Source: Escherichia phage JLBYU50
Direction: 5' to 3' (one strand)
Sequence record: OK272470.1
DNA: 64,000 bases
In this document: piece after piece, positions 29,930 through 46,116 of the stretch
Layout: each line of letters starts with the position of its first letter
How positions within the stretch are numbered: position 1 is the first letter of the stretch
Program-made: the position numbers and the translations under genes
The notes under the pieces: model-generated
Seen by the model: the letters and a program-made list of their open reading frames with translations, nothing else
Database searches by the model: none
Told to the model about the DNA's origin: nothing

Positions 29930-30199
29930 CTAAAATGATTCGTTTGTCTCCATAATATATTGCATTTCCAAATCTTCCATATGTTTCTTAAATTGGTAAA
30001 CAATTTCCGATGGGGAAATATCTATATCAAAAAGTTCTTTTGTACCAGAATAAAATCTAATACCATCAACAATAAGACCACCATAATAATCCCAATCACT
30101 TTCTCGTGAGAAAGGGTTAGGTTCTTCATAATAGTAATCTACTTCAACAATAATAGGTTCTTTATTATCTTGTTTATACTCAAAATCAAAAGTGTTCAT
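29930..30199 (-). CDS. hypothetical protein
   Basis: 89-aa ORF; start overlaps stop of upstream gene. Confidence 0.45.
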   Translation of the reverse strand: MNTFDFEYKQDNKEPIIVEVDYYYEEPNPFSRESDWDYYGGLIVDGIRFYSGTKELFDIDISPSEIVYQFKKHMEDLEMQYIMETNESF

Positions 30200-31143: not shown

Positions 31144-31154
31144 ATCGCTCCTTA

Positions 31155-32168
31155 TTAAAGACTTTCAATAACTTGACGACGCAGTTCATTGGCATCTGCA
31201 AGATTATAATTAAGACGAACGTGTTCTGCAAGCATCATACCACGATCTTCTGTGTATCTAGGGTTCCTCATTAGCTTGACAACTTCATAATGCCAAGATG
31301 CTTTAGAGTCTGCATAGATAACAGCCTTTGCATCTACCGGATTGAAGTACGGCAGCACAGGAGAACAGATAATAGGAAGACCCTTTGCACCTGCTTCCAA
31401 AATCTTCAAATTGCTTTTACAGTTGTTGAAGTCATTATCTACCAGAGGAGCAATTGCAATACTGTGACCGTCATACACAGACATATACTCACCTAAATTT
31501 TTAATAGCTGGTTTATACTGTGCATTTGGAATTTTACGTTTTACTTTAACCCACTCCGCAGTAGTTAGATACTGACTATTATTTCCAACAGGTGCAGAAG
31601 GATACACTTCATACCCTGCAATTGTCAATAGTGTATCATCAAATGTATTAGCTACAAGAGATAAATCAGGCTCATGGCTTGCTCCTCCAGCCCAAACAAT
31701 AGGCGTGTCAGAATAACGGTCTTTTGTTAAAGTAAATTGACCTTCGTCGTAAGGCAGTGCGTTTCTAATAACGACAACATTACGATTTAAATGACGAATT
31801 TTGTAAGCTAGGTATTCTGTTGTTACTGTAACAACATCTGCTAACTTAACCATCTCTACAATAGTCTTTGAGTGATTAGTAAATACGCCAGCCATATAAT
31901 GTTCAGGATTAAGCGAATAAAAATCATCTAAATCAACAATAATCTTAACACCTTGTGCCTTCAGGCGTTTAACTTCGTCTGATCCACGAGAATACACTCT
32001 ATTAAAAACTAAAACGTCTTTCTTAGGCTTAAACGTATTTCCCGCAAATGGCATTACAATACGATGGTAATCACAACCACTGCCTAACTTATTATCACAC
32101 TTAAGTACAGGAGTATTAGGATTTACCATATTTTTGAGCCTCCTCATAAGAGATAAAAGTTTTACCAT
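31155..32168 (-). CDS. glycosyltransferase (GT-B fold candidate), paralog 2
   Basis: SNLKILEAGAKGLPIICSP; alternative start ATG at 32129 with RBS gaggagg would reduce overlap with upstream gene. Confidence 0.55.
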   Translation of the reverse strand: MVKLLSLMRRLKNMVNPNTPVLKCDNKLGSGCDYHRIVMPFAGNTFKPKKDVLVFNRVYSRGSDEVKRLKAQGVKIIVDLDDFYSLNPEHYMAGVFTNHSKTIVEMVKLADVVTVTTEYLAYKIRHLNRNVVVIRNALPYDEGQFTLTKDRYSDTPIVWAGGASHEPDLSLVANTFDDTLLTIAGYEVYPSAPVGNNSQYLTTAEWVKVKRKIPNAQYKPAIKNLGEYMSVYDGHSIAIAPLVDNDFNNCKSNLKILEAGAKGLPIICSPVLPYFNPVDAKAVIYADSKASWHYEVVKLMRNPRYTEDRGMMLAEHVRLNYNLADANELRRQVIESL

Positions 32169-32802
32169 TGCGAAGATCCTCCAGTGATTGTTTATATTGT
32201 TCCCAGTTTACACCAATCCCCTGTTCTTTCTCTTCTTTTGACAGATTCGCAAAAGGTAAAGGATTATCTCCAAACACATCGTCAGGATGGATAAACGCCA
32301 TAATTCGAATAGGACATGGTACGCCGTGAATACCTCGATTCAAACCTGCCAGTGGAACACGCTGAATCCACTCTGCATCCTCATATCCATAACCGTGAGT
32401 GTATGAGCGGAAATAGCCAGCTTTCTCAATAACTGCACGGGAATACATACCAAACTGGCACATGCCTAGCTCCCAAATAACCACTTCTCCTTCAATACCT
32501 TTTACTTTATCTTTAAAATATTCAGGCATACCAAAGAAATCCCAACCGTTTTCCTTCGCCTGTTTTACAAAGTATGTTTCCCAACCTGGTACAACCGGAT
32601 AGCAATCATCATCAAAAATAAACCAGTAGTCATACCCTTCATCATAAAACTTTTTCATCAGTTCATTACGGGCATATGCAACACCTTTTCGTTCACGATC
32701 ATACTGTACAACAAAAGTAGCATTAGGATCAGTTACAAGATAATCTTTAAGAGGACGCTTACCTACAGTAATAACACCAACACCAATTTTTGTATTTTCC
32801 AA
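32116..32802 (-). CDS. glycosyltransferase (GT-A fold candidate)
   Basis: DxD-like FIFDDDCYP and GYGYEDAEW motifs. Confidence 0.45.
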   Translation of the reverse strand: MENTKIGVGVITVGKRPLKDYLVTDPNATFVVQYDRERKGVAYARNELMKKFYDEGYDYWFIFDDDCYPVVPGWETYFVKQAKENGWDFFGMPEYFKDKVKGIEGEVVIWELGMCQFGMYSRAVIEKAGYFRSYTHGYGYEDAEWIQRVPLAGLNRGIHGVPCPIRIMAFIHPDDVFGDNPLPFANLSKEEKEQGIGVNWEQYKQSLEDLRNGKTFISYEEAQKYGKS

Positions 32803-32811
32803 AATAACTCC

Positions 32812-33375
32812 TTAAATAATTTTATTCATGTCTTGACAATGTAAAAGGTGTGAAACAGCTTTTCTAGGATCATCATTACCTAAACGGTATGTGTGAAATA
32901 AATATAACCCACGTAGTAAACCTAGCCTTTTATTGTTAGCGTGCAATGCTTTAGAGAAAATTATATCAAACTGTATTGATCTTTCCTCAAAAGGAATTTC
33001 ATTCCACAGACTCTTACGAAAGAGAAGAAAGAATCCTGCTAAGATAGCATCTGTAGGTACTTCCTCTATTGAGTTTCCCCATTCTAGATGTGCTCTTTTT
33101 GCAATCTCAATGTGGTGTAATATATTCGGATCTTCACTTCTTTCATTATTAAATAATTGATATGTTGATCCCAATCTGTTACAAGATGCACCAAGAACAT
33201 CAAAATCAGGATTTGAACGGACTATTGATTCCAGCCAAGCAGGTTGTTCTGGAAGAAGAAACATTGTATCAATGTCTCTTAGGCAAATCCAACTATCTTC
33301 TGGTAAGACACTTATTGTGTCATTGATACCTTTTCCAATATCTCCAGAAAGATAGGGAGTTATGTGAAATATCAT
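32812..33375 (-). CDS. hypothetical protein (possible glycosyltransferase-like)
   Basis: 187 aa, co-transcribed with the three glycosyltransferase candidates; DID acidic motif. Confidence 0.4.
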   Translation of the reverse strand: MIFHITPYLSGDIGKGINDTISVLPEDSWICLRDIDTMFLLPEQPAWLESIVRSNPDFDVLGASCNRLGSTYQLFNNERSEDPNILHHIEIAKRAHLEWGNSIEEVPTDAILAGFFLLFRKSLWNEIPFEERSIQFDIIFSKALHANNKRLGLLRGLYLFHTYRLGNDDPRKAVSHLLHCQDMNKII

Positions 33376-33432
33376 ACTCCCTCCGTATTATTACTTTAGC
33401 ATTTTTAGACTAAAAAGTCCAAATGGTTTTAC

Positions 33433-33627
33433 CTATTGATTACGTTTTGCGAGTTCCATTTGGATAGCTAAACTGTGATCTCGTGCTTCCATATACTCTT
33501 TATATGTTTCATTAAGATGATCACGACAAACATCACGCAGTTTAATCAGTTTATCTGTAGGGATACCACTAAGATCATCCCAAGATTTTACAACTTCACC
33601 AGTATCATTGATCCCAATGGTTTTCAT
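33433..33627 (-). CDS. hypothetical small protein
   Basis: 64-aa ORF. Confidence 0.4.
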   Translation of the reverse strand: MKTIGINDTGEVVKSWDDLSGIPTDKLIKLRDVCRDHLNETYKEYMEARDHSLAIQMELAKRNQ

Positions 33628-33883
33628 CTACAACCTCCTTAATTGCTACAGCACAGTTTTTGCAGATACACTGCCCTTTACCTTTAGAAATCTGGATGTA
33701 AGGTTCATTTTCATTTTCGCCCTTACGTGAGTCATATATTACAGAATTGAAGCACACAACGCAAATATTTTTTAATATTGTATACTTATCAACTTTCTTT
33801 TTTGTTTTAAAGTTAACTTCAATAACATCAGCCATCAGTGTAACACTCCCAGTATGTTGCTTTGTGACATAACCATAGAACAT
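33605..33883 (-). CDS. hypothetical Cys-rich small protein
   Basis: CVVCFN ... CICKNC pairs suggest a zinc ribbon. Confidence 0.4.
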   Translation of the reverse strand: MFYGYVTKQHTGSVTLMADVIEVNFKTKKKVDKYTILKNICVVCFNSVIYDSRKGENENEPYIQISKGKGQCICKNCAVAIKEVVDENHWDQ

Positions 33884-34113
33884 TCAACATTATCGTGACT
33901 ACGTGAAAAACGTTCCCAAACATCTTCATCGACTCGTAAAGCTATACAAGGATAGACGTTATCATTGATCATTTCAATTGAATAAACATCTACATTGTCT
34001 TCGTCTTCGATGAACATCATTGCAAACTGTTCTAAATGTTTCCTAATGTAATGTACATCCTCTTCTGTAAGACCAATAACAAGATAACTTGCAACGATAA
34101 CGCCCTCTTTCAT
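33835..34113 (-). CDS. hypothetical protein
   Basis: 92-aa ORF. Confidence 0.4.
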   Translation of the reverse strand: MKEGVIVASYLVIGLTEEDVHYIRKHLEQFAMMFIEDEDNVDVYSIEMINDNVYPCIALRVDEDVWERFSRSHDNVECSMVMSQSNILGVLH

Positions 34114-34123
34114 CTATATCTCC

Positions 34124-34633
34124 TTAGCGATAGAATTGATGTTCTTTGTAGCGGTACACTAGAACCATATCTTTTTCCCAGTGTGCTCTTATTGTAGATT
34201 TTTTAAAGTATAATGCTCCTTTTGTAATATCTAATGCAATTCGTAATTCTGGAAAATGCGTATCGAGATAAAGTAGACGTTCTGCTATAGCCTTAGCTTC
34301 CTTCCACTTATCACGTTCCATAACGTTGAATGTCTTTGTGTAAGAGAATTGTCCTTTTTGAAACAAAACTTCTTTTATAGTATCAGGGAAATATGAATCT
34401 CTAGCCCTATTCAATACTACATTACCAACAGCAGACATACCGCGCTTTCCTTGATTACGACTTTCTGCATAGATTGCACAAGCTAATAGATTTTCTTTAC
34501 TATCACGCTTTGTACACTTGTGAACTACTTTAGCAGTTTTTACGTTTGCAGCTTCGGCTTGCGCCACAACAGGTGTAAATGTAAAAGCAGTTAAGGATAG
34601 TAACGCAATTGCGACAAAGGTTTTTATTGACAA
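34124..34633 (-). CDS. secreted SleB-like cell wall hydrolase (candidate endolysin)
   Basis: Signal peptide MSIKTFVAIALLSLTAFTFTPVVAQA; core AIYAESRNQGKRGMSAVGNVVLNRARDSYFPDTIKEVLFQKGQFSY matches SleB-type hydrolase signature. Confidence 0.7.
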   Translation of the reverse strand: MSIKTFVAIALLSLTAFTFTPVVAQAEAANVKTAKVVHKCTKRDSKENLLACAIYAESRNQGKRGMSAVGNVVLNRARDSYFPDTIKEVLFQKGQFSYTKTFNVMERDKWKEAKAIAERLLYLDTHFPELRIALDITKGALYFKKSTIRAHWEKDMVLVYRYKEHQFYR

Positions 34634-34695
34634 ACTTGCCTCCTATTTTGTTAAACGAACTTTTATTGTAACACAGAAGAGGCTGTTTTGCAAGT

Positions 34696-34718
34696 GGAGG
34701 GGGATTATCCCCCTCTTA
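34696..34718 (-). terminator. stem-loop (gaggggga-tta-tccccctc) downstream of ORF 34726..35328
   Basis: 8-bp GC-rich perfect stem; U-tract weak. Confidence 0.4.
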
Positions 34719-34725
34719 GACTCTG

Positions 34726-35328
34726 TTAGATATTGTAAACCTTTGTATGAGTTACTACACCATCTTCTACAAAATCAACACGTTCTTGATCCGTAACTAG
34801 TGCAGACAATACTTTAAATTTAATTTTTACACGTTCAAAAGCTGGTTGACCATCTTTAAGATAATTATGTTCAGTTGTCACTGTCTTGTTTACAAAATCA
34901 ACTTTTGCTTTACCGTTTTCGCGTAAATGGAATGTTTTTCCTGCTTTATACACAATTTCAACATTGCCTTCGAGAGTAATTCCTTCAAAAAGTTCACCCT
35001 CTTCTTCATTTTCTTCACTTTTGAACAGACGACGAAACTCTTCCATATCAAGATAAACAACATCTTCAGAATAACTATCAGTAAGGTATGTCTTACCATC
35101 CATTAACCCGAAATATTGCCAGATCGCAGAATAAACATCACTGGTTGATCCAAGGGTTTCTCTGAGTTTAGTTCCACGGATTACTTCATAAACTTCAAAA
35201 TTGAAACCAGACTGCAAAGCATTAAACAGTACATCACTAACTTCTAAAGCATAATCTTCATTGTTGTCAATATCCACAAGAAAATTACCGCTACGAATAA
35301 GTTTTTGACCTTCTAAAGTAATACCCAT
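34726..35328 (-). CDS. hypothetical protein
   Basis: 200-aa ORF between TerD-like gene and lysin. Confidence 0.5.
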   Translation of the reverse strand: MGITLEGQKLIRSGNFLVDIDNNEDYALEVSDVLFNALQSGFNFEVYEVIRGTKLRETLGSTSDVYSAIWQYFGLMDGKTYLTDSYSEDVVYLDMEEFRRLFKSEENEEEGELFEGITLEGNVEIVYKAGKTFHLRENGKAKVDFVNKTVTTEHNYLKDGQPAFERVKIKFKVLSALVTDQERVDFVEDGVVTHTKVYNI

Positions 35329-35349
35329 TGTTTTCTCCTCTTTTATTTA

Positions 35350-35375
35350 AAATATGCGCCCCGAAGGGCGCTATG
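35350..35375 (-). terminator. rho-independent terminator downstream of TerD-like gene
   Basis: gcgccc-cgaa-gggcgc hairpin followed on - strand by ATATTTTAAAT. Confidence 0.6.
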
Positions 35376-35380
35376 ATTTA

Positions 35381-35977
35381 TTACTCGAACCAATCGTCGC
35401 CAGCGCCAAACGCTTTAACTACATCGTAAATGTCAAGCCCAGCTTTACCTACACCATATGCTTTCAGTTTCCATTCGTTATCTTCTCGCACCAGGGAGGC
35501 AACGTGGCAAATGGTATTACCTGCAAGTTCTGGAGCCAAGAAGTCAAAATCCAGCAGTTCAACGTTACGTTCATCATCGAAGATTTTAAGGAAACCTTCG
35601 GTAGCGTGACCAAGGCGTTTCTTACCCGTTTCGTCATCAATAGTAATTACGAATGCAATTTCCTGTGCTTCAGCAGAGATATTATCCAGTGTAACATCAA
35701 TCTGCTCCATTTGTCCTACACCATCACGAACATCTTCACCTGCAAAAGTAGAACGTTCAGGATCAAATTTCTGCGCGTAGCACACCAGGTGACGAGGAGA
35801 CAACAGTTCCGGCAGACCAGATGCATTGTGTCGGCAAATCAGAGCACTAACATCCAGATCCAGTTTTTCGTTAGATTTCCAAGAGAATTCCAGACGAATG
35901 CGTTTCAGTGCTGGTGCAATCTTTTTCAGAGAAACTTTTTCGCTAGAACCTTTTTTCAGGGAAATTTTCTGAGTCAT
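35381..35977 (-). CDS. TerD-domain stress protein
   Basis: N-terminal repeated ISLKK...VSLKK; central FAGEDVRDGVGQMEQIDVTL resembling TerD Ca-binding GDN..G.GDDE..I motif. Confidence 0.65.
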   Translation of the reverse strand: MTQKISLKKGSSEKVSLKKIAPALKRIRLEFSWKSNEKLDLDVSALICRHNASGLPELLSPRHLVCYAQKFDPERSTFAGEDVRDGVGQMEQIDVTLDNISAEAQEIAFVITIDDETGKKRLGHATEGFLKIFDDERNVELLDFDFLAPELAGNTICHVASLVREDNEWKLKAYGVGKAGLDIYDVVKAFGAGDDWFE

Positions 35978-36049
35978 AATTTATTATCTCCTTTGTTGTT
36001 AATTTACGTTGTCTATTTTACTAATCTTTTCTACAAAGTCAAGCGTTTT

Positions 36050-36844
36050 TTACGCTTTTGCTCCAAATTTTTTAACCCACTCACCAAACTCTTCGGATAA
36101 CAGTTTATCGTAAAGTTCTTCATCAGACAAGGACAAATCTGCAATACCGATAAAATCAACATTATCGTATTCTTTTGCCAAGTCTTTCAGGAATTTAAAG
36201 TTTGCATTACCTACACCAACCATAAACCAGTAAACAGGTGTATTGCGGTGTTTGTTCAGTAAGCTACGTACTGCTGAAGTATCCATGTTCTCCCCGTCAG
36301 TTTGGAAGAAAATCATTGCAGGAGTACGATCAACTTGTGCATCAGTATCTACAACCTGTTCTACAACAGTACGTGTTACTTCTACAAGTTCTTTTTTACC
36401 AGTTAGTTTAGCAAGGAAACCTTTAGCTGGAACTTCTTCATACTCAACGACTTCGCGTGTAATATTTTTCATAGGTACACTACCGAAGTATGTATCATAA
36501 ATGTCTTGCATTACTGGAGCATAAGCTGTACCACCATTGATGCAAACATTAGACATACAAGAGCCGACATAATCATCATATACATCAGCCGTTGCAGGAG
36601 GCAGTTCAAAAGAAGAACTATTGAAAGCCCACATGTCAATCTGCGCATTATCATCAAACTTCATACCAAACGGCAGCAGCTTACCTACAAAATCACTAAC
36701 AGTGCCATCACGATATAGCTCACACATACTACCCGAAATATCTAAGGCGCTACCGACACGAAGAACAACATCGTTAATCTTTTTCTTACGCAGAGATACA
36801 GTAAGAGTTTCTTGACGTTTTTTAAGACTGATTTTATTGGACAT
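36050..36844 (-). CDS. von Willebrand factor A domain protein (TerY-like)
   Basis: MIDAS motif DISGSM near N-terminus; N-terminal ISLKK...SLRKKK resembling TerD leader. Confidence 0.6.
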   Translation of the reverse strand: MSNKISLKKRQETLTVSLRKKKINDVVLRVGSALDISGSMCELYRDGTVSDFVGKLLPFGMKFDDNAQIDMWAFNSSSFELPPATADVYDDYVGSCMSNVCINGGTAYAPVMQDIYDTYFGSVPMKNITREVVEYEEVPAKGFLAKLTGKKELVEVTRTVVEQVVDTDAQVDRTPAMIFFQTDGENMDTSAVRSLLNKHRNTPVYWFMVGVGNANFKFLKDLAKEYDNVDFIGIADLSLSDEELYDKLLSEEFGEWVKKFGAKA

Positions 36845-36845
36845 A

Positions 36846-37115
36846 TTATTTCTCCTTTCTGACTGTAATGTTAGTAACTTCTAAATCCACTTCTACCACT
36901 TCTGTATCATATAAAATACAGTTAAGTTGACCTCTTTGTGAACCGTTCAGACACATTGCTTGGTTTGTATTAACCTTAATAAACACTAAGTTTATGAACG
37001 TATCTAAACCAGAATCTTGATAGGCAACATAATATACAAATGTATCACCTGTGTCAAGTTCTCCAAAACATTTAGGTTCATCTGATTTGTCGTCTTTGAT
37101 ATTAAATTTAAGCAC
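36846..37115 (-). CDS. hypothetical protein
   Basis: 89-aa ORF, overlapping stop/start with neighbours. Confidence 0.4.
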   Translation of the reverse strand: MLKFNIKDDKSDEPKCFGELDTGDTFVYYVAYQDSGLDTFINLVFIKVNTNQAMCLNGSQRGQLNCILYDTEVVEVDLEVTNITVRKEK

Positions 37116-37671
37116 TGTCTTCTCCTTTACCTGCTCTCAAGCCTAAATAGAAAGCCTCTCTGGTGATTTTTTGCAACTCGTTTAAAGAGATAGTTACAAC
37201 TAAATCATCTTCAATTTCTAGCTTTGAGTCTTCTTCTGTCTCAATGCAAGTATTATGCACTTTGTGGTAAGGATTGTCAACACGTTTAAATTTATTATTT
37301 TCAGTGCTGAAGAAGCAATCTGGATCTTCTTCTCCATCACCCCAACCCTGGTTAGGGTCTTCTTCAGATCTTTCTGTTGGGATCTCACCTGTAAAGTGCT
37401 CTTCTAATACCAGAGCAATCCCATCTCCAAGATCGGAAGAGAACATCAAATTACAAACTTCTTCCCAAGGCATAGACCACTTAAATCTTTTACGATTGCC
37501 ATGTTTATCTTCTTCGTTAGAGAAAACACTACCATAGCTATCATAATTGCCATACATCTCTTCAACAACTTTACCACCTTTCAAAAGAAATAGGTAGCAA
37601 GGAGAGCCATCGAAAGAGGTAGAAAGAGCAGCATTACCAGACTCTTTGCACAAGAAACTAAAACACCCCAT
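37108..37671 (-). CDS. hypothetical acidic protein
   Basis: 187-aa ORF. Confidence 0.45.
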   Translation of the reverse strand: MGCFSFLCKESGNAALSTSFDGSPCYLFLLKGGKVVEEMYGNYDSYGSVFSNEEDKHGNRKRFKWSMPWEEVCNLMFSSDLGDGIALVLEEHFTGEIPTERSEEDPNQGWGDGEEDPDCFFSTENNKFKRVDNPYHKVHNTCIETEEDSKLEIEDDLVVTISLNELQKITREAFYLGLRAGKGEDSA

Positions 37672-37871
37672 TATACACCAACCTTAAGATCAATTATAGC
37701 CAAAGTGGTTTCAGAGTGTGTTTGCTCGTCTACAGGTGCAGTCATGTGATAATACAAAAAATCTTCGGCATCATACCAATCTGACTCTTGACCTTGTTTC
37801 CAACCATCAATGAAAGCATCTTCCATAATTGTTTGTAACTCTTCACGAGTTAAGTGAATATCTTTACTCAT
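37671..37871 (-). CDS. hypothetical small protein
   Basis: 66 aa, start/stop overlaps. Confidence 0.4.
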   Translation of the reverse strand: MSKDIHLTREELQTIMEDAFIDGWKQGQESDWYDAEDFLYYHMTAPVDEQTHSETTLAIIDLKVGV

Positions 37872-38104
37872 TACACATTCTCCTCTTTTACCAATTCCAT
37901 CGTTGAACTATCAAAACCATCTTTAGAAGAATAGGTATAGACAGAACGTAGTTCTCGCAGGACAGTGAATACATTGGGATCATCTAACCAAGCATCCTGG
38001 AGGAGAACATAACGATCTTCATTGTCGTACTGGACAGCAATCATAGAACCAGACAGTTTGTAAATTTTAATATTCATAATATATTTCTCCTTAAAGTAGA
38101 CCAC
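37871..38104 (-). CDS. hypothetical small protein
   Basis: 77 aa. Confidence 0.4.
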   Translation of the reverse strand: MVYFKEKYIMNIKIYKLSGSMIAVQYDNEDRYVLLQDAWLDDPNVFTVLRELRSVYTYSSKDGFDSSTMELVKEENV

Positions 38105-39194
38105 GTTTAACAGTTTGAATCATACCATCTTCAAGAGATTGCACTTCTTGAATGTAATCAATACGCGCAGCACGGGCTTCAGTGTTGATTCGGTTAGTTT
38201 CTTCCAACATTTTAACTAAGTTTTCTTGATCGCGACGTAATGTCTCAATATCCAATACTTGACGATTAGCAAGTTGTGTAGCTTCAATTTGGTTTTGTGC
38301 CGCCAGATCACTACCCATTGCAATAGCAGCATTAAATTCATTCAGCACATTGTTCTGTGTATCGGCTGCTTTCTTCTGGCGTAGACTTTCAATATACATA
38401 GAAAAGTTTGCAGAGTAAGCAGGGATAACATTATTCACAATATTACGGGCTGATCGCATCAAACTTGCAGATACTTTCTGCATACTTTGTACACGTGGCC
38501 CCATCTGAACACACAGTAAGCGTAGGGCTTTCAGGTCTGCAATACGAATTTCAAGCAGATCCATAGTATCACGAGTACGTTGACGCTCTTCTACCTCATT
38601 TTCAGGCAGTGTATTAAGGCGAACTTCTTCTTTTTCATACGTAGCTGTTAGAAGCTCTATATCTCTGTTTAAGCTAAGAGCATATTTGGCAATAGCCTCT
38701 TCTAAACGTTGCAGATATCGTAAAGAATCTTCTTCTTTTTTCAAGTCTGTTTGGAGTGTCTTTACCAAACCTTCAATACGATTATTGATGGTGTCAAATT
38801 CTCCAAACAAATCTTCTTTCATACCTAATACTTTCTTAACTAGTTTACCTAAGCCTTTAGATTGCTTAATAGAGTTAGGATCAAGTTGCTTTGCTTGCTT
38901 AATAAGTGCAGTTAAACGTTCACTCATTTCATCCCCCTGAGATGAACGCTGGTGTTTAAGCACTTCAGCATTAAGGTTACGAAGAGTAAGTCCTGCATCA
39001 GCACCAACTTGTTCAATCTCTTCACGAGACATTGGAGGCAGCATTTGTACAGGTCGTGCAACAGCAGGGGCATATACAGGGCTTGCATCCATAGCACTTG
39101 GAGCAAATAAAGACTTACTTTTTTCTGTTGTTGCCGTGAATACACTCATTTCAGACGGTTTGCTTTTTACGGCACTGATAAAAGGACTGGACAT
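38091..39194 (-). CDS. TelA-like (toxic anion resistance family) coiled-coil protein
   Basis: 367-aa all-helical protein; assignment rests on overall pattern and genomic linkage with TerD/TerC/vWA genes. Confidence 0.45.
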   Translation of the reverse strand: MSSPFISAVKSKPSEMSVFTATTEKSKSLFAPSAMDASPVYAPAVARPVQMLPPMSREEIEQVGADAGLTLRNLNAEVLKHQRSSQGDEMSERLTALIKQAKQLDPNSIKQSKGLGKLVKKVLGMKEDLFGEFDTINNRIEGLVKTLQTDLKKEEDSLRYLQRLEEAIAKYALSLNRDIELLTATYEKEEVRLNTLPENEVEERQRTRDTMDLLEIRIADLKALRLLCVQMGPRVQSMQKVSASLMRSARNIVNNVIPAYSANFSMYIESLRQKKAADTQNNVLNEFNAAIAMGSDLAAQNQIEATQLANRQVLDIETLRRDQENLVKMLEETNRINTEARAARIDYIQEVQSLEDGMIQTVKRGLL

Positions 39195-39262
39195 TCAATT
39201 TCCTCCATATTCTTTAGTAGATGGTGATACCTCTGTACCACCATCATAACACAAATTAAGTA

Positions 39263-40114
39263 TTAAACAAACATATCTAAATAATTTGTAGTAATAAACG
39301 CCCCATCTGCTTCCAGATTAACATAACCAGTAGCATTAGTGGTTAAGAAATCCAGATCGAAGGACTCTTTAACACCCCGTACCTCAACACGAGAGATATC
39401 GAATACAGGTAGTGTAACAGCCTCTTCGTGCAATACCGTACCTTTGTAGGTTGCCTTAATGATAAACTTGATATTACCCGTTCCAGCATCATACAAAACA
39501 CTTTCAAACCCTTTGAGAGTATATTTATCACCAGAAGTGAAGTGCAAAGTTGCTTTGTTTACAGTACGTTTTTTACGAGGAGTTCCTTTCACACGTTTAT
39601 GATCACTACGTTTTTTGTACTTAGGAATGAATACAAACGATACATTCTGAAGAAAGGTATCAACATCAAGGATTTTAATATCCTCTGTTGCAGCAAATTT
39701 TGAAGTCGTTGCATCAAAATGCTTTTCCCTGCGATCATACATAAAGATATCAAACCGATCTTCTAAATCAAACAAATTATGTATTTTAATTTCAGAATGC
39801 TTGCGCATTGCAGCAACCTTGAACTCTTCAAAACGTGGGTGTTCTACAAGTTCTTCAAGTTTTACACCAAAGACAGTATATTGCTTCGGAGTTTTTTCTG
39901 GTGTTGGCATTACAGAAGCATAATCCCCGATTGCGCTCTTAAAGCAAAATTGTTCTTGACCTGTATTTTTACCAACGAATTTACAGTATTCATCATTGTG
40001 CATACTTTCCTTAGTAGTACCAACAAACTCAAAACCATCTTTATTCTTCTCAAGAATTTCTTGATTAAAGATCCAACCTTCCAGGCGATACACTTTACCA
40101 ACTTCTAGTTTCAT
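39263..40114 (-). CDS. hypothetical protein
   Basis: 283-aa ORF. Confidence 0.5.
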   Translation of the reverse strand: MKLEVGKVYRLEGWIFNQEILEKNKDGFEFVGTTKESMHNDEYCKFVGKNTGQEQFCFKSAIGDYASVMPTPEKTPKQYTVFGVKLEELVEHPRFEEFKVAAMRKHSEIKIHNLFDLEDRFDIFMYDRREKHFDATTSKFAATEDIKILDVDTFLQNVSFVFIPKYKKRSDHKRVKGTPRKKRTVNKATLHFTSGDKYTLKGFESVLYDAGTGNIKFIIKATYKGTVLHEEAVTLPVFDISRVEVRGVKESFDLDFLTTNATGYVNLEADGAFITTNYLDMFV

Positions 40115-40149
40115 CTGTTTCTCCTTCTTATTTAATCTGTATTAAATTA

Positions 40150-40740
40150 TTAACGACGACGTGAGCTACTAAAACTACGTTTCGACGAAGAATAACTTTT
40201 CGAAGACTTACTATAAGAGCTAATAGGACTTGAGTAAGACTTACGAGCAGAGTAATCACTATTCACTTTTGTTGTTGATGGGCGTGAATACGTTTGTACA
40301 CTTTGCTGCTTAATTGTGTTTTGTTTAGTGGTTGTATATGTATTTCCTTGTTTATCATAAAAACTATGCTTTTGTGTTGTATATGCTTTGCTATTAGTTG
40401 TAGGAGCAGCGTTGTTATTGATAATTGTTGTATTGCTACCGCCATCTCTATAACCACCACCGCCACTATTACCACTCAACATATGACCAAGAAGCATACC
40501 TGTAGCAAACTCACCTACACCAGAAGAACCACTGCCGCCTCCTTGCACAACAACTGTTGAAGGTTGTGCAGGTGCTGCTTGAACAACTTGAGGTGCAGGT
40601 TGATTTACATATTGTTCATCTACCATCTGATTTGGTGTTTGTTGGTAACGTTGATTTTGTACATTTTCAGAATCATCACAACCTACCAGCAATACACTAC
40701 CTAAAACAACTGCAACAATAAAAGATTTAATGTTTTTCAT
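40150..40740 (-). CDS. outer-membrane lipoprotein with Gly-zipper-like and Ser/Tyr-rich regions
   Basis: Start reassigned to ATG at 40740; signal peptide with lipobox LLVGC; GGGSGSSGVGEFATGMLLGHMLSGNSGGGG. Confidence 0.5.
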   Translation of the reverse strand: MKNIKSFIVAVVLGSVLLVGCDDSENVQNQRYQQTPNQMVDEQYVNQPAPQVVQAAPAQPSTVVVQGGGSGSSGVGEFATGMLLGHMLSGNSGGGGYRDGGSNTTIINNNAAPTTNSKAYTTQKHSFYDKQGNTYTTTKQNTIKQQSVQTYSRPSTTKVNSDYSARKSYSSPISSYSKSSKSYSSSKRSFSSSRRR

Positions 40741-40933
40741 TTGTAACCCTCTCATTTAAAGTCTCAACACAATTTTTAAAATCCCTAGAGAAACAATACA
40801 TCTGTTCTCCGTTCCTGTTGATAGTAATTGTATGGTTATCAATATATGTTGTCAAGATAAAAATCAAACAAAACAACCCTAGAGCAAAACAAATATTTTC
40901 AAACAGAATCCAAAGAACACGTAAAACCACCAT
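40727..40933 (-). CDS. small membrane protein
   Basis: 68 aa with hydrophobic LGLFCLIFILTTYI segment. Confidence 0.35.
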   Translation of the reverse strand: MVVLRVLWILFENICFALGLFCLIFILTTYIDNHTITINRNGEQMYCFSRDFKNCVETLNERVTNEKH

Positions 40934-40946
40934 CAGATCACCTCAA

Positions 40947-40968
40947 TAAAGCCCCCGAAGGGGCTTAA
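40947..40968 (-). terminator. stem-loop downstream of TerC-family gene
   Basis: aagcccc-cgaa-ggggctt hairpin. Confidence 0.55.
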
Positions 40969-40972
40969 TGAA

Positions 40973-41950
40973 TTAAGCAACAGCCTGGTCTTCTTTTTCA
41001 GGGAAGATTAAACTTGCAATAACACCCAACCCAAGAGTACCTAACACAATATACATACTGATCGTCGGATCAATGTGTGCTGGTAGGAAACTCACTTTTG
41101 CGTGCAGAGTTTCTGCAAACGGGTGATACATCAGTTTTACACCCACAAATACCAGGACTACGATAACTGCTTTCTCCAGATGAACCAAATACTTCAGTGC
41201 AACACTAAGAACAAAGAACAGAGCGCGTAAACCTAAGATTGCACAGAGCATCGAAGAGAACACCAGCAGAGGTTCTTGTGTCACTGCAATTACTGCTGGA
41301 ACAGAGTCTACTGCAAAGATTACGTCAACCATTTCCATTACAAACACACAAACCAGAGCCGGAGTTGCTACACGAACACCATTTTTGATTGTGAAGAACT
41401 TCTCACCATCCATCTGATCAGATACAGGGAACAGCTTACGAACAATGCGAGTAGCCCAGTGTTTAGAGTAATCAACTTCTGCATCATTATCTCCAGCGAA
41501 TACCATTTTAGCCGCACAGAAAAGGATGACAGCACCGAAGAAGATATTAACATACCAGCCCAAACTCAACAAGTAAGTACCTACTGCTACAAACACACCT
41601 CGGAAGACAATCGCACCTGCAATACCCCAAAGTAGAATCTTGTGTTGCAAGTGTGTGCTTTTAATACCAAAACTTGCGAATACTGCCACAAATACTACTA
41701 AGTTATCTACAGAAAGAGATTTCTCCAACACATACCCACTCAAGAACAAACTCGCAAAATCAGCACCGTGTTGGAAGTATACAAAACCATAGTAGGCTAA
41801 TGATACCCCAATCCAGAAAATTGACCAACCAACTGCCGATTTAAATGAAATCTCTTTGTTTTCTCTGTGTCCAAAGAAATCAATACAAATCGACAACACT
41901 AAAATACCCACTAAAACAACCACATCAATAATTGGGAAACCCAGTTGCAT
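40973..41950 (-). CDS. TerC-family integral membrane protein
   Basis: Multi-TM 325-aa protein with duplicated signature LEKSLSVDNLVVFVAVF and FAVDSVPAVIAVT. Confidence 0.75.
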   Translation of the reverse strand: MQLGFPIIDVVVLVGILVLSICIDFFGHRENKEISFKSAVGWSIFWIGVSLAYYGFVYFQHGADFASLFLSGYVLEKSLSVDNLVVFVAVFASFGIKSTHLQHKILLWGIAGAIVFRGVFVAVGTYLLSLGWYVNIFFGAVILFCAAKMVFAGDNDAEVDYSKHWATRIVRKLFPVSDQMDGEKFFTIKNGVRVATPALVCVFVMEMVDVIFAVDSVPAVIAVTQEPLLVFSSMLCAILGLRALFFVLSVALKYLVHLEKAVIVVLVFVGVKLMYHPFAETLHAKVSFLPAHIDPTISMYIVLGTLGLGVIASLIFPEKEDQAVA

Positions 41951-41968
41951 TCTTTTCTCCTCTTTAAT

Positions 41969-41987
41969 GCGGAGGACAATCCTCCGC
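41969..41987 (-). promoter_or_regulatory. hairpin in 5' leader of TerC-family gene
   Basis: gcggagg-acaat-cctccgc stem-loop immediately upstream of the RBS gaggag. Confidence 0.35.
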
Positions 41988-42027
41988 TCTATGTCTTATA
42001 CTATAAACTGTTTTTAAAGAAAGTCAA

Positions 42028-42327
42028 CTAGTTCAGTTCTGTAATTTTAAGTTTATCTTCTTTGTTAATGATAGGGAAAGCTACAGCATCACCTACGTCA
42101 TCAATAAAGCAAATAGCAAGGCCACCTTCCACTTTGCTAATCTGACCATTAAAGGCGTGATACGGGGCAGGAACTTGATCTCCATCTTCAAGGAGAATAG
42201 CCTCGTAAACCTTGCCGATAGTACAATCACGAGTGTTTCTAAATTTTTCAAGCACTTCAACATTTACTTTACGCATATAAAATCCTCTCTTATTTGTTAG
42301 ATTGAAAGATACCACGGAGTACCGCAA
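42028..42327 (-). CDS. hypothetical protein
   Basis: 99-aa ORF. Confidence 0.45.
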   Translation of the reverse strand: MRYSVVSFNLTNKRGFYMRKVNVEVLEKFRNTRDCTIGKVYEAILLEDGDQVPAPYHAFNGQISKVEGGLAICFIDDVGDAVAFPIINKEDKLKITELN

Positions 42328-42496
42328 GAATGAACGTCACACAGACTACACTCCAAAACGTTACAGGAACATGATGCCAGTCTAAGCCGATAATGTCAAT
42401 CATATAATTGTATGCTAAAAGCAGTAGCCAACTAGGGATTAACACAATCAAGAACACAACAATAAAACAACCTAATACTGCTAAAACACCTGCCAT
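42290..42496 (-). CDS. small two-helix membrane protein
   Basis: 68 aa, two hydrophobic helices. Confidence 0.4.
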   Translation of the reverse strand: MAGVLAVLGCFIVVFLIVLIPSWLLLLAYNYMIDIIGLDWHHVPVTFWSVVCVTFILAVLRGIFQSNK

Positions 42497-42505
42497 ACTT
42501 TCTCC

Positions 42506-42883
42506 TTATTTCAGTTTGTAAACAATTACATTTAAACCTTTGTTTACTAGAGTTTCTTCGATCATAAGTTTTACAATATTCCAAGAACCTCCAGCCAAAC
42601 CACAACCAAGCATTGGTAAACCTACAATTTTACCGCCTGAAGATACAACATCGTCTCCCATACTATCTAGCGCATTGTAGATAGCTTCATAATTCAGGTC
42701 ACGCTTACCTTCCTCACGACGACTATAACCATATTGTCCATATAAATTATAAATTGTCAAATTGTTTTCTGTATATTTGGTAAACGTACCTAATTTTTTA
42801 TAATCACCACGTTTAGTGGCACAATCTGCTTTAAACGCACCAGGCCACTTGCTTTTAATTTTTGGTGCAATACCACTACCCAT
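42506..42883 (-). CDS. macro-domain-like protein (N-terminally truncated relative to canonical macro)
   Basis: MGSGIAPKIKSKWPG resembles macro Gly-rich phosphate loop; C-terminal KIVGLPMLGCGLAGGSWNIV resembles second macro signature; start overlaps stop of AAA+ gene. Confidence 0.4.
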   Translation of the reverse strand: MGSGIAPKIKSKWPGAFKADCATKRGDYKKLGTFTKYTENNLTIYNLYGQYGYSRREEGKRDLNYEAIYNALDSMGDDVVSSGGKIVGLPMLGCGLAGGSWNIVKLMIEETLVNKGLNVIVYKLK

Positions 42884-43829
42884 AGTGCAAAAACAGTTGA
42901 AGATGCTCTTCTCCTGACTTATGGTCTACAGCTACAACATAACGATTACCGCTAAACAAACCTTGTGCTGTCATACCGTCAATATCGGTATCTGCCGAAA
43001 CATCTCCTGTACGATCTACACCGTTAACTTTCAGGAGTTTAACTTCTTTTGCAGCATAGCGGTGTTCAGTAATACTGATACCCATTAATGCAAGTGCATC
43101 AGAGAATTTGTCATTAGGGTAACGGTTAAGTTCTTCTACTAGTGACTGAACAATATCAAAGTTCAAGTCCACGGAAAGATTATAAAGCGTTTCAAAATCT
43201 GGTAAAAAGGCTTTGTTCTCCAGATTTTTAGCCAGATAGTCATCCATAGTAGCTTTAGGTAGTTTCTTATAGCTAAAGCTGTAGAAAATACGGCTAGGAC
43301 GATTACGCAAAAATTCTGATACATAACCATCATTTTTAGTCAATACAAACAGCTTGTCATAGCCACCAACACCATCCAGCAGGGTAAGCAAACCATCCTG
43401 TGCATCTTTTTCAGCATACAGTTTATCAAATTCATCGATCATAATCATCACAGGTTGTGTGATTTTAGACATAAAATTGATAAAGCCTTCACCATTAAAA
43501 GCACTACCGATAGAAATAGTAGGAATACCCATTTCACGAAGAGCAGAAGATAGCATTTTAGCTTGCAAAGTTTTACCGCTACCCTTCGTACCCTCAAGGA
43601 GAACACCTGTGTTTTTACCTTTGCGGCTAAGGAACGTCTTGATAATACGTTCTGATTTATCATCAGTATCACCGTATGTTACTGAAGGGACTTCCATATC
43701 GTTTTTAGGATACAGGAAGAACTCACCACTTTGAGTAACACCTACACCAAAAGTTCCTGCTGGAATTTCTTCAATATCTGTACCAGACTTCTGACGCAGG
43801 AAGATTTGATTGCCGAATACTGTAAACAT
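42876..43829 (-). CDS. AAA+ ATPase (paralog A)
   Basis: Walker A GTKGSGKT; Walker B IMIDEFDK; sensor-1 FVLTKN; Arg-finger NRPSRIFY. Confidence 0.65.
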   Translation of the reverse strand: MFTVFGNQIFLRQKSGTDIEEIPAGTFGVGVTQSGEFFLYPKNDMEVPSVTYGDTDDKSERIIKTFLSRKGKNTGVLLEGTKGSGKTLQAKMLSSALREMGIPTISIGSAFNGEGFINFMSKITQPVMIMIDEFDKLYAEKDAQDGLLTLLDGVGGYDKLFVLTKNDGYVSEFLRNRPSRIFYSFSYKKLPKATMDDYLAKNLENKAFLPDFETLYNLSVDLNFDIVQSLVEELNRYPNDKFSDALALMGISITEHRYAAKEVKLLKVNGVDRTGDVSADTDIDGMTAQGLFSGNRYVVAVDHKSGEEHLQLFLHYG

Positions 43830-43849
43830 AGTTTTCTCCTCTATTTAAT

Positions 43850-44320
43850 TTAGTCAGATTCCCAAATGTTGTCTTTCTTAACCCACATTCGTTGATTATC
43901 TGAACCTCTATAACGTTTCGTTGTTGGTTGATTCATATCATACTTACCATCTATCACTATGTCAACCAGTTTTTTAATTTTTTCTGGAATTTCTTCAAAA
44001 AGATATCCTGTATATAAGACAATATCTTTTTTGTTTCCAAAACAATCTCTTACCTTTTCAAGAACATACTCTACAGTATCAATGTTCTCTTTGTCAAGAG
44101 GTTCACCACCTAAAACTGTTAATCCTTTAATGAAAGGTCGAGATAAATCTTTCAAGATAAGATCTAATGTTTCAGTAGTGAACTCTTGTCCGTAGTTATA
44201 CGACCAGGCTTTCTGGTTAAAGCAGCCACGGCAACCGTGGCTACAACCGCTCACCCACAAAGAGCATCTTACACCGTCACCGTTGAGCATGTCAACAGGT
44301 TCATATCCGGCGTAATTCAA
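43850..44320 (-). CDS. nrdG: anaerobic ribonucleotide reductase activating protein (radical SAM)
   Basis: CSHGCRGCFN radical-SAM cysteine cluster; 156 aa; start overlaps nrdD stop. Confidence 0.8.
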   Translation of the reverse strand: MNYAGYEPVDMLNGDGVRCSLWVSGCSHGCRGCFNQKAWSYNYGQEFTTETLDLILKDLSRPFIKGLTVLGGEPLDKENIDTVEYVLEKVRDCFGNKKDIVLYTGYLFEEIPEKIKKLVDIVIDGKYDMNQPTTKRYRGSDNQRMWVKKDNIWESD

Positions 44321-46116
44321 AAATGTTTCTCCCTTTCTAATACTTCTTGCATTTTACCTTTATTATAAGGGCGAGAGTTAGGGGCAGAAAGGTATCCTGA
44401 CACTCTTCTGATCACAGATATGGATTCTTCTTCATGATTACCGCAACTTGGACACTCGAAGCCTTTAGCCGTTGCTTTAAATTCACCATGAAAACCACAT
44501 TTGAAACACTGATCTACAGGTTGGTTCACGCCAAAATAAGGAATTTTATTGTAGGCATAATCTACAAGAGTTTCCAGTGCTTGCAAGTTATTTTTAAGGT
44601 TTGGTGTTTCTACATAACCTATGTTCCCACCATTACTAATTTGTGCAAAACCTTCCTCATAATCCCACTTTTGGAACGGGGTAGTGTGCATCCACACAGG
44701 TTGATGGAAAGAGTTTGTCAAGTAGTCACGATCAATAGAACCAGGATAGCGATCATTTAATGCTTTGGCAAATTTATAGCACAAGGATTCTGCTGGTGTT
44801 CCATACAAACTAAAAGCTAAACCAGAACGTTCTTTAAATGTGCCACAGATATCCTTCATATATTGAAGGATGTTTTTACCCATTGCTTTTGGATTGGTGT
44901 TACCTGGGTATAAAATCTCCATAGCTTCTGCTAAACCTACGTAACCGATACTAATAGAGGCATAACCACCTTCGAATAGTTTACCAATCTCTTCATTAGC
45001 TTCTAGTCGAGCTAAAGCCCCTTCCATAAACAATGTAGGGTTTTGAGATGCTTTGGTATGTCTAATACGGTTAACACGTAGCATATGTGCCTTATACGCC
45101 ATCTCCATATGTTGTTCCAACAGTTCAGTAAATAAGATGCCCTTTTCACGGGACTCTGCTGCAATGATAGGTAAGTTTAAAGAAACTACGCCTAAGTTGA
45201 AACGACCATCATATTTTTCACCTTGCTCTGTTGCATAGTATGACAAGAAGCTACGGCAACCCATGCTTGTGACGCGACCATCTGAAGATCCTGTAACCTC
45301 TTTGTTTAAAGGTACAGAGATAAAATCAGGATAAATGCGTTCAGCACAACACTCCATTGCCAGTTGCTTCAAATCATAGTTTGGATCGCCAGCTTTCATG
45401 TTAACACCATCTTCCAAGAAGAAGATAACTTTAGGAAACACAGGAGTTACTCTATCTTTTCCCAACCCTTGTTTGTGCACCATTAGGTAGTTTTTAGTGA
45501 TCATTCTACCAAAAGCAGAGGTATCCAAGCCTAAACTAATTGTTATAAAAGGTGACTGACCATTTACACTCATTAGAGTGTTCACCTGGTAGATTAAAGT
45601 TTGCATTGCATCATAGACCTGTTTATCTACCATACGCATAGCAATATCATAATCACCAACATCAGCATATATTTTATTAAAACTTGCTTTAACGTATTGA
45701 CTAAGCCCAGTATCAACATGTGCACAAGTTTGTCCACCATATTGGCTAGAAGCTACTGCTTGAATAATTTGAGTTAGGACAGTAGTCGCTACACCGATAG
45801 ATTTTGGTTTTTCAATATGTGCATTACCAATACGGAAACCGTTCTCAAGCATATCTTGGTAATTTACCAGGCAACAATTAGTTAAAGGTGAGAGTAAATA
45901 ATCTAAATCGTGGATGTGACCATACCCACTTTTATGCCATTCTGCTAAATCTTCAGGTAAAATATGGGTCATTGCCATGTGCTTGCTTAGGATACCTGCT
46001 AGTAAATCTCGGTGAGTATTAACAATCATTGCAGGTTTGTTTGCATTTTCACGAGTAAATTCTTCGGATGTTTGTTCGAGGAATCCGATTACATCCTCAT
46101 ATAGTTTTTGGGTCAT
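44317..46116 (-). CDS. nrdD: anaerobic ribonucleoside-triphosphate reductase
   Basis: 599 aa; C-terminal Zn ribbon CFKCG...CPSCGNHEE and glycyl-radical motif RRVSGYL. Confidence 0.85.
   Translation of the reverse strand: MTQKLYEDVIGFLEQTSEEFTRENANKPAMIVNTHRDLLAGILSKHMAMTHILPEDLAEWHKSGYGHIHDLDYLLSPLTNCCLVNYQDMLENGFRIGNAHIEKPKSIGVATTVLTQIIQAVASSQYGGQTCAHVDTGLSQYVKASFNKIYADVGDYDIAMRMVDKQVYDAMQTLIYQVNTLMSVNGQSPFITISLGLDTSAFGRMITKNYLMVHKQGLGKDRVTPVFPKVIFFLEDGVNMKAGDPNYDLKQLAMECCAERIYPDFISVPLNKEVTGSSDGRVTSMGCRSFLSYYATEQGEKYDGRFNLGVVSLNLPIIAAESREKGILFTELLEQHMEMAYKAHMLRVNRIRHTKASQNPTLFMEGALARLEANEEIGKLFEGGYASISIGYVGLAEAMEILYPGNTNPKAMGKNILQYMKDICGTFKERSGLAFSLYGTPAESLCYKFAKALNDRYPGSIDRDYLTNSFHQPVWMHTTPFQKWDYEEGFAQISNGGNIGYVETPNLKNNLQALETLVDYAYNKIPYFGVNQPVDQCFKCGFHGEFKATAKGFECPSCGNHEEESISVIRRVSGYLSAPNSRPYNKGKMQEVLEREKHF

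Follow-up and report, generated by a model that had tools for sequence, protein, structure and literature searches.

A conserved abbreviated Ter core in Escherichia phage JLBYU50, a natural variant without the neighboring HAD-PRTase-Macro genes

A 64,000-nucleotide stretch of Escherichia phage JLBYU50 (sequence record OK272470.1; here called the window) contains, at positions 34124 to 41950, a group of genes that an earlier note, made from the letters alone, had described as a Ter-like stress-response cluster with a secreted SleB-type hydrolase and a lipoprotein. In this study, we closely examined this region and found it near certain that it represents the abbreviated Ter core conserved in Stephanstirmvirinae phages, consisting of genes for a TerC, a TelA, a TerF-type vWA, and a TerD protein that are equivalent to phi92 gp182, gp178, gp173, and gp172, respectively. 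Comparison with other phages indicates that only these four genes form a recurrent unit and that the interleaved open reading frames (ORFs) and the hydrolase are bystanders. JLBYU50 is furthermore a natural variant in which the Ter core is kept and an arm of HAD, phosphoribosyltransferase (PRTase), and Macro genes is lost. The account developed here is, taken as a whole, the best explanation of the region, with a probability of roughly 0.6. The earlier observation was confirmed, and its interpretation was partly supported.

Profile searches bore out the assignment of TerC, TelA, vWA, TerD, and the SleB-like hydrolase to their families, with all four core Pfam matches well above the gathering scores (Table 1); chance does not account for matches of this strength. 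From the TerC start to the TerD stop, the core spans 6.6 kb on the minus strand, in agreement with the previous description of four genes within 7 kb on one strand. The TerC protein also passes the NCBIfam model TIGR03718 (TerC/Alx) with 323 bits against a cutoff of 246. It carries the SLSVDN and AVDSVPA signatures noted earlier at amino acids (aa) 78 to 83 and 213 to 219, respectively, is polytopic with several hydrophobic segments according to a hydropathy scan, and shows 47 to 50% identity to TerC of plasmid ter operons. The same scan revealed no hydrophobic segment in TelA, vWA, or TerD.

In the vWA protein, the metal ion-dependent adhesion site (MIDAS) is complete and comprises D35-x-S-x-S39 within the DISGSM motif, which is present as described, plus T106 and D183. 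The protein is 29% identical (E = 2e-33) to the vWA protein of the Ter operon of Caulobacter phage CcrSC. TerD matches the solved structures 2KXT of Klebsiella (E = 8e-15) and 3IBZ of Streptomyces and shows 31% identity to plasmid TerE. Its LDLD motif is retained, and its calcium-site motif is degenerate at aa 80 to 91 (GEDVRDGVGQME versus the classical GDNxTGEGDGDDE). An AlphaFold2 model of TelA is all-helical, with helices at aa 125 to 195 and 201 to 309, and is of low confidence (predicted local distance difference test [pLDDT] score of 59). Sequence searches for relatives of TelA and of vWA in the PDB found none.

Table 1. Features of the Ter region of JLBYU50 and its surroundings (window coordinates)
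Feature	Position	Strand	Basis
SleB-type (Hydrolase_2) cell-wall hydrolase, phi92 gp170 orthologue	34124..34633	-	Pfam, E = 6.5e-20
Sigma-70-like promoter with extended -10 (TTGCAA-17-TACAAT, TG), upstream of SleB-type gene	34665..34693	-	Promoter scan
gp171 orthologue, 200 aa	34726..35328	-	No Pfam match
Predicted terminator hairpin GCGCCCuucgGGGCGC, directly after TerD	35356..35371	-	Terminator scan; -13.6 kcal/mol, z = -3.4
TerD-domain protein, phi92 gp172 orthologue, 198 aa	35381..35977	-	Pfam PF02342, E = 4e-28
Sigma-70-like promoter TTGACT-16-TAAAAT, upstream of TerD	36015..36042	-	Promoter scan
TerF-type vWA protein, phi92 gp173 orthologue, 264 aa, no transmembrane (TM) segment	36050..36844	-	Pfam PF10138, E = 1.1e-38
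gp174 orthologue, 89 aa	36846..37115	-	Two paralogues in ESCO5
gp175 orthologue, 187 aa, large uncharacterized phage family	37108..37671	-	N terminus MGCFSFxC
gp176 orthologue, 66 aa	37671..37871	-	48% identical orthologue in ESCO5; no Pfam match
gp177 orthologue, small ORF	37871..38077	-	Annotated in phage Paula; no Pfam match
TelA-family protein, phi92 gp178 orthologue, 367 aa, no TM segment	38091..39194	-	Pfam PF05816, E = 5e-34; phrog_5890
gp179 orthologue, 283 aa, lineage-restricted	39263..40114	-	No Pfam match
gp180 orthologue, lipoprotein, lipobox LLVGC ending at Cys26	40150..40740	-	phrog_21570; sequence
gp181 orthologue, 68 aa, one N-terminal TM segment	40727..40933	-	phrog_17591; hydropathy scan
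Intrinsic-terminator-like hairpin and UUUAUU, directly after TerC stop	40943..40966	-	-14.4 kcal/mol, z = -2.6
TerC/Alx-family integral membrane protein, phi92 gp182 orthologue, 325 aa	40973..41950	-	Pfam PF03741, E = 1.2e-38
Stable hairpin in predicted TerC 5' leader, GCGGAGGA-uug-UCCUCCGC	41969..41987	-	-15.0 kcal/mol, z = -4.6, equalled by 0 of 200 shuffles
Sigma-70-like promoter TTGACT-16-TATAGT, upstream of TerC	42000..42027	-	Promoter scan, 10/12 matches
Macro-domain gene remnant, C-terminal 125 of 238 aa from internal Met	42506..42883	-	Pfam Macro, E = 2.8e-5
AAA ATPase truncated by deletion, 317 versus 386 aa, new tail LFLHYG	42876..43829	-	Comparison with relatives
Junction of 2,460-bp deletion	42898..42899	.	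blastn versus phage Paula: 42898 to Paula 14777, 42899 to Paula 17238

Sequence comparisons place the window in the genus Justusliebigvirus (subfamily Stephanstirmvirinae), the phi92 group. Over its full length, the flagged region shares 98.7% identity with Escherichia phages VivaForever, Eryne, muut, and others, and at least 80% of it is covered at 95 to 99% identity by 54 deposited phage genomes. By means of the annotated record of phage Paula, the ORFs were mapped one to one onto phi92 gp170 to gp182. All cluster genes are encoded on the minus strand inside a replication and nucleotide-metabolism arm, which also carries genes for a T7-like primase-helicase, a family A DNA polymerase, NrdD/NrdG, and a UvrD-type helicase on the same strand. 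Four records that are about 98% identical to the region are labeled "Campylobacter phage" (A150, A145, C3, and A110a; MG065639, MG065645, MG065656, and MG065689, respectively), and these host labels may be wrong.

All four genes are retained in every close relative. We compared this genome with that of the Phapecoctavirus phage ESCO5 and obtained ratios of nonsynonymous to synonymous substitution rates (dN/dS) of 0.13 for TerC, 0.08 for TelA, 0.18 for vWA, and 0.15 for TerD, with synonymous sites near saturation. Values of 0.08 to 0.18 indicate that the four genes are maintained by purifying selection. They are not recent imports from enterobacterial ter operons; the highest identity of TerD to any TerD-family protein from plasmids is about 31%. 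TelA and vWA show 22 to 29% identity to their counterparts in other phage groups.

A set of this kind has been described before. Iyer, Anantharaman, Krishnan, Burroughs, and Aravind (2021) reported an "abbreviated Ter operon" of phages, composed of TerD, TerC, TerF-vWA, and TelA, and assigned roles to its components (PMC7824862). We found TelA homologues in 244 phage records of many genera, including all 54 Justusliebigvirus records (at least 99% identity), 77 Phapecoctavirus-type records (60 to 80%), and further Pseudomonas, Caulobacter, Brevundimonas, Erwinia, and jumbo phages. With 54 near-identical records, this wide spread of TelA, and phage Ter sets already in print, the idea that such genes are unusual on a virulent phage does not hold. 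The literature yielded no report of temperate behavior of Justusliebigvirus, and the phage is regarded as virulent. GenBank records of close relatives already name the genes as tellurite resistance, TerC, vWA domain, putative stress protein, and cell-wall hydrolase. The possibility raised earlier, that the cluster might prove common and already characterized in close relatives, was borne out for its abundance and not for experimental characterization, as the genes are only annotated there.

To define which Ter components are present, canonical plasmid ter-locus proteins were queried against the whole 64-kb window by tblastn. In the canonical plasmid locus, genes for HpcH, StiP, PRTase, and ATP-grasp proteins are divergent from TerZ-A-B-C-D-E. 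TerC found a match (50% identity), and TerZ and TerE both matched the single gene at 35381 to 35977. In the window, no match was obtained for TerB at an E value of ≤1 or for the TerA, ATP-grasp, PRTase, StiP, and HpcH queries, and no TerB Pfam match occurred among the cluster proteins. The window holds one TerC gene and one TerD-domain gene, without TerB, paralogues, or biosynthetic genes, and does not contain the "complete Ter-like set" announced in the earlier note. This composition also bears on a role as tellurite-resistance determinant that would benefit the host, as the "tellurite resistance" labels in GenBank and PHROG would have it. Among the genes named as essential for tellurite resistance, terB, terC, terD, and terE (PMC8123226), both terB and terE are absent from the window; moreover, the phage is virulent, and the authors of the phiPsa374 study argued likewise for the set of that phage. 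We regard this role as scarcely credible.

The window is collinear with the Paula genome apart from a clean deletion of 2,460 bp upstream of TerC, with no microhomology at the junction. Contiguity across the junction was found in 0 of 58 related phage records, and an exact junction match was not found in IMG/VR. The same junction exists in Logan assembly SRR25464451, where the fusion ATPase lies on a contig with 100% identity over 5,184 bp, which confirms that the deletion is real; a literature search on this sequencing run found nothing. In relatives, the interval comprises the C terminus of an AAA ATPase (gp190; about 70 aa), the small ORFs gp188 and gp189, the HAD hydrolase gp187, the PRTase gp186, and the N-terminal part, about one half, of the Macro protein gp185. 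The gp186 protein is a ComF-like PRTase_3 (PF15610, E = 1e-41), and the PRTase is kept in all 54 close relatives and in the Phapecoctavirus group. Full-length gp185 of Paula matches the Macro family (E = 2e-7) and shows a weak DarG-like match.

PRTase and HAD enzymes have been proposed as the "signal biosynthesis" arm of Ter systems (PMC7824862), and because these are the genes deleted here, JLBYU50 represents a natural variant with a Ter core and without this arm. The arm beside the Ter genes of the relatives consists of PRTase_3 and HAD only, both of which JLBYU50 has lost. In close relatives, the HAD-PRTase-Macro cassette may be seen as an echo of the biosynthetic arm of bacterial ter loci. 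The natural deletion would suggest that the core can work without these genes. That the core is fully self-sufficient, acting early at the inner membrane to block secondary phages or colicins or to reset the divalent-cation state without the HAD-PRTase-Macro "signal" genes, is a speculative extension that we consider rather doubtful.

The HAD and ComF-like PRTase_3 genes overlap and form a conserved two-gene cassette (Paula, 15094 to 16600; records L009, 4093 to 5608, and L010, 6333 to 7816). Since the pair also occurs without adjacent Ter genes in Rhizobium, Xanthomonas, Caulobacter, and Brevundimonas phages, its tie to Ter is not obligatory. In the Rhizobium phage, it adjoins a nicotinamide mononucleotide adenylyltransferase/Nudix gene, a neighborhood that hints at a nucleotide- or nicotinamide adenine dinucleotide-related pathway. 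Separately, gp024 of phiPsa374 (3861 to 4319), about 2.7 kb from TelA, is homologous to the Macro protein of the phi92 group (35% identity, E = 8e-23), so that two unrelated phage groups have a Macro gene in the vicinity of Ter genes. The phiPsa374 gene adjoins nicotinamide PRTase and phosphoribosyl pyrophosphate synthetase-like genes.

We then considered whether the remaining genes belong to the same system. The SleB-type hydrolase has an N-terminal hydrophobic, signal-like segment with the cleavage motif AQA/EA, and its alignment with PDB entry 4F55 (YAESR versus YGESR) shows conservation of the catalytic Glu. It is not a true spore cortex-lytic SleB equivalog (TIGR02869, 51.9 bits versus a cutoff of 236.5) and shares only the fold family. 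SleB-type genes were found in 1147 phage records, many of them without Ter genes, compared to 244 for TelA, and the carriers include T5-like, rV5-like, and Pseudomonas phages that are absent from the TelA matches. No SleB homologue was found near the Ter genes of CcrSC or phiPsa374. Because of its wider spread, its own predicted promoter, and its absence beside these two Ter sets, the hydrolase is an independent, widespread phage gene and a neighbor rather than a member of the Ter unit.

The interleaved ORFs gave a similar picture. Orthologues of gp180 and gp171 were not detected in ESCO5; gp180 is confined to Justusliebigvirus, and gp171 is inserted between TerD and the SleB-type gene in this genus only, whereas TerD abuts SleB in ESCO5. 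The gp175 protein was considered as a Ter component and rejected, as its distant homologues sit in early regions of other phages without any Ter gene. The lipoprotein and the small membrane proteins noted earlier are real, with a lipobox in gp180, one TM segment in gp181, and two in gp184 (hydropathy scan), but with a widespread hydrolase, lineage-specific gp180 and gp171, and gp175 occurring elsewhere without Ter, their proposed membership in one system, together with the hydrolase and the unknown ORFs, is unsupported.

These data also speak to a lysis or envelope-remodeling cassette, in which the Ter proteins, the lipoprotein, the membrane proteins, and the hydrolase would time or execute lysis. 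The adjacency is conserved in both Stephanstirmvirinae genera, with TerD directly abutting SleB in ESCO5, the hydrolase has a signal-like N terminus, and gp180, gp181, and gp184 provide a lipoprotein and small membrane proteins. However, the hydrolase is far more widespread than TelA and missing from the CcrSC and phiPsa374 Ter loci, it has its own predicted promoter and TerD its own predicted terminator, Phapecoctavirus lacks gp180 and gp171, and the region lies in the replication arm and not in a late lysis cassette. In Justusliebigvirus BME3, the SleB-type enzyme has been described as a second "endolysin", with a lysozyme encoded within the structural module, and candidates for holin and spanin elsewhere in the genome (PMC12210895). 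Taken together, a lysis cassette is very unlikely.

Scans for transcription signals suggest that the Ter genes are arranged in several short units with predicted host sigma-70-type promoters and not in a single operon. Candidate promoters precede TerC, TerD, and the SleB-type gene, and terminator-like hairpins directly follow TerC and TerD (Table 1); a further hairpin is located downstream of gp171. TelA through vWA form a tightly packed run with a possible extended -10 promoter upstream of TelA. The predicted TerC leader of about 45 nucleotides contains only a simple hairpin, and an Rfam scan of positions 33000 to 45000 at an E value of ≤1 gave no match to a riboswitch or other structured RNA, including the manganese-responsive yybP-ykoY type. 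If the promoters are real, they imply early expression by host RNA polymerase.

Based on these properties, we propose that the four proteins would be made early by host RNA polymerase, with TerC acting as an inner-membrane cation transporter and TelA, vWA, and TerD residing in the cytoplasm. TerC, the metal-binding TerD and vWA proteins, and the helical TelA might then assemble into a metal-dependent complex at the inner membrane, which would alter divalent-cation handling and the membrane state of the infected cell. This effect could mimic the inhibition of phages and the resistance to colicins that bacterial ter loci confer, so that until lysis the infected cell would withstand superinfecting phages and agents that damage membranes. 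Phage inhibition and colicin resistance are lost upon insertions in terC, terD, and terZ, and deletion of terC in Klebsiella lowers resistance to phage, zinc, and manganese (PMC12054061). Superinfection exclusion or competition with superinfecting phages was proposed for phage Ter sets by Iyer et al. (PMC7824862), and the phiPsa374 and phiKp34 studies comment similarly (PMC9796965 and PMC8386662); the guess of superinfection exclusion in the earlier note coincides with this published hypothesis. An early membrane/cation complex that shields the infected cell is our tentative proposal, and we rate its chances somewhat below even.

Several points weigh against such a shielding complex. The low-confidence TelA model gives no structural support for a sub-membrane scaffold role, and with the degenerate calcium site, TerD may bind or sense metal differently from classical TerD proteins. 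A PADLOC scan of the ten largest cluster proteins gave no defense-model match, only weak Cas12g noise for gp179 (E of ~2e-3). The promoters are consensus matches only, of which 46 were found versus 35 ± 7 expected in shuffled sequences, and as the Ter genes are split among units and interspersed with unrelated ORFs, their co-regulation and the assembly of a complex are assumed. The deletion variant is known from one short-read assembly only. Finally, experiments on any phage Ter gene were not found in the searched literature, nor were experiments or transcript timing for the ter genes of Stephanstirmvirinae.

Alternatively, the genes might form a metal-homeostasis set in which TerC exports manganese, zinc, or calcium under regulation by TerD, vWA, and TelA and which either tunes metal levels in the cytoplasm or periplasm to suit phage enzymes or metalates Sec-exported phage proteins, without any exclusion. 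Placement of the phage TerC in the TerC/Alx subfamily above the curated cutoff, the intact MIDAS of vWA, and the nearby genes for a lipoprotein and a hydrolase with a Sec-type signal are consistent with this alternative, as are reports that TerC proteins export manganese, work together with the Sec pathway, and supply metal to secreted enzymes (PMC10550928) and that Klebsiella TerC confers zinc and manganese resistance (PMC12054061). However, a purely homeostatic role leaves unexplained why TelA, vWA, and TerD travel jointly with TerC in unrelated phages, neither a manganese riboswitch nor another Rfam element lies upstream of the phage TerC, and SleB-family lytic transglycosylases use a catalytic Glu. 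The latter are not known to be metalloenzymes, which also counts against this role, as does the presence of Alx-type TerC paralogues in the E. coli host. We consider metal homeostasis alone unlikely, with a chance that is still appreciable.

A further alternative is counter-defense, with phage TerC and TerD acting as decoys or poison subunits against phage-inhibiting TerZABCDEF systems that the host carries on plasmids or islands. The 47 to 50% identity of the phage TerC to ter-operon TerC would fit, bacterial ter loci inhibit phages (PMC12054061), and a TerD homologue was found in 2,374 plasmid records, with ter loci being common on enterobacterial plasmids. However, phages isolated on K-12 hosts retain the module, and TelA and vWA are outside the minimal terBCDE determinant. 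E. coli K-12 is not known to carry a ter operon, which likewise speaks against counter-defense. We regard it as highly improbable.

If a self-sufficient core proves true, the relatives infecting K-12 would be the simplest available system for learning what Ter proteins do. Phage inhibition and colicin resistance by Ter were reported in the 1990s, and the biochemical role of the proteins has been obscure since. A minimal, strongly conserved four-gene version on lytic phages growing on E. coli K-12 is a compact genetic system, and together with the deletion variant it offers a means to separate cation transport, membrane scaffolding, and exclusion as modes of Ter action. Databases and the literature already contain these genes with their annotation as well as the leading hypothesis, and our scan adds little to this; the new items are only the deletion variant and the bystander status of the interleaved ORFs and the hydrolase.

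The neighboring proteins were characterized by sequence and model searches. The gp180 ORF encodes 201 aa, with an annotated start at Met6 that yields 196 aa, and the mature part is a low-complexity sequence with many S, Q, T, and G residues. The residue that follows the lipobox Cys, at position +2, is Asp (LLVGC-DD). Asp at +2 is the classical inner-membrane retention signal, and by this rule gp180 would be retained in the inner membrane. The gp181 orthologue in ESCO5 is 49% identical. Only two clusters of the genus-restricted gp179 were found among 5.8 billion proteins, and its similarity in ESCO5 is limited to a stretch of 83 aa. The gp171 family is small, with 12 representatives, and shows no similarity to gp179. 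The gp175 family is large, with 294 homologues and an invariant MGCFSFxC N terminus, and searches of PDB and BFVD with a confident gp175 model (pLDDT score of 85) found no fold match. Among the gp175 homologues, one has been deposited as a protein of E. coli and lies on a contig of 151 kb.

Justusliebigvirus and Phapecoctavirus genomes have been found within assemblies of E. coli isolates as "persistent virulent phages" (bioRxiv 10.1101/2024.12.31.630880), and under such a persistent lifestyle, a module for stress protection could have a role. As a side observation, four consecutive ORFs on the minus strand downstream of the cluster (30199 to 33375) resemble a glycosyltransferase set. One of them matches Glyco_trans_1_2 (E = 1.8e-6), and another weakly matches a TET-associated glycosyltransferase family (E = 6.8e-5, below the cutoff); the set could concern modification of DNA or of surface sugars.

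Comparison with known Ter-related systems places the JLBYU50 set among the abbreviated phage types. The kilA/telA determinant of RK2 (klaA-telA-telB) has a TelA-family protein in common with JLBYU50, and Pfam searches identified no KlaA or TelB partner among the neighbors in the phage. The yceCDEFGH operon of Bacillus subtilis encodes three TerD paralogues, TerC/MeeF, YceG, and the TelA-like YceH. TerD, TerC, and TelA co-occur there as they do here; JLBYU50 has a single TerD and an additional vWA protein, and its cluster proteins gave no Pfam match to a YceG-type family. MeeF (YceF) is a TerC protein (PMC10550928). A TerY-P triad, consisting of a TerY vWA protein, a PP2C phosphatase, and a Ser/Thr kinase, was considered and rejected, with no PADLOC match for the vWA protein or the other nine cluster proteins scanned, a vWA protein of the TerF type, and no kinase or phosphatase Pfam match.

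Compared with the enterobacterial terZABCDEF operon, similarity is highest for TerC (47 to 50%) and lower for TerD (31% to TerE), and relatives of JLBYU50 also carry PRTase and HAD genes beside their Ter genes. The operon has TerB, several TerD paralogues, and an ATP-grasp/HpcH arm, whereas the JLBYU50 window lacks these and has TelA and a stand-alone TerF-type vWA protein, which are missing from the terZABCDEF operon compared here.

The closest counterparts are phi92 gp170 to gp182 and their orthologues in all deposited Justusliebigvirus phages (e.g., Paula, muut, VivaForever, and BME3), with the same genes in the same order at 98 to 99% nucleotide identity; unlike JLBYU50, all of these relatives retain the 2,460 bp upstream of TerC. 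In our comparison of gene order, the same four genes recurred in ESCO5, CcrSC, and phiPsa374. Phapecoctavirus ESCO5 shares the layout of the Ter genes with JLBYU50. The abbreviated Ter operons of CcrSC, phiPsa374, and Klebsiella phage phiKp34 have the same four components at only 22 to 29% identity. In CcrSC, these genes are contiguous in the order TelA-vWA-TerC-TerD, whereas in JLBYU50 they are spread over 6.6 kb with nine other ORFs between them and, by prediction, split into separate promoter-terminator units. In phiPsa374, the order is TelA-gp14-vWA-TerD-TerC, and the order from TelA to vWA is common to the abbreviated phage sets and JLBYU50.

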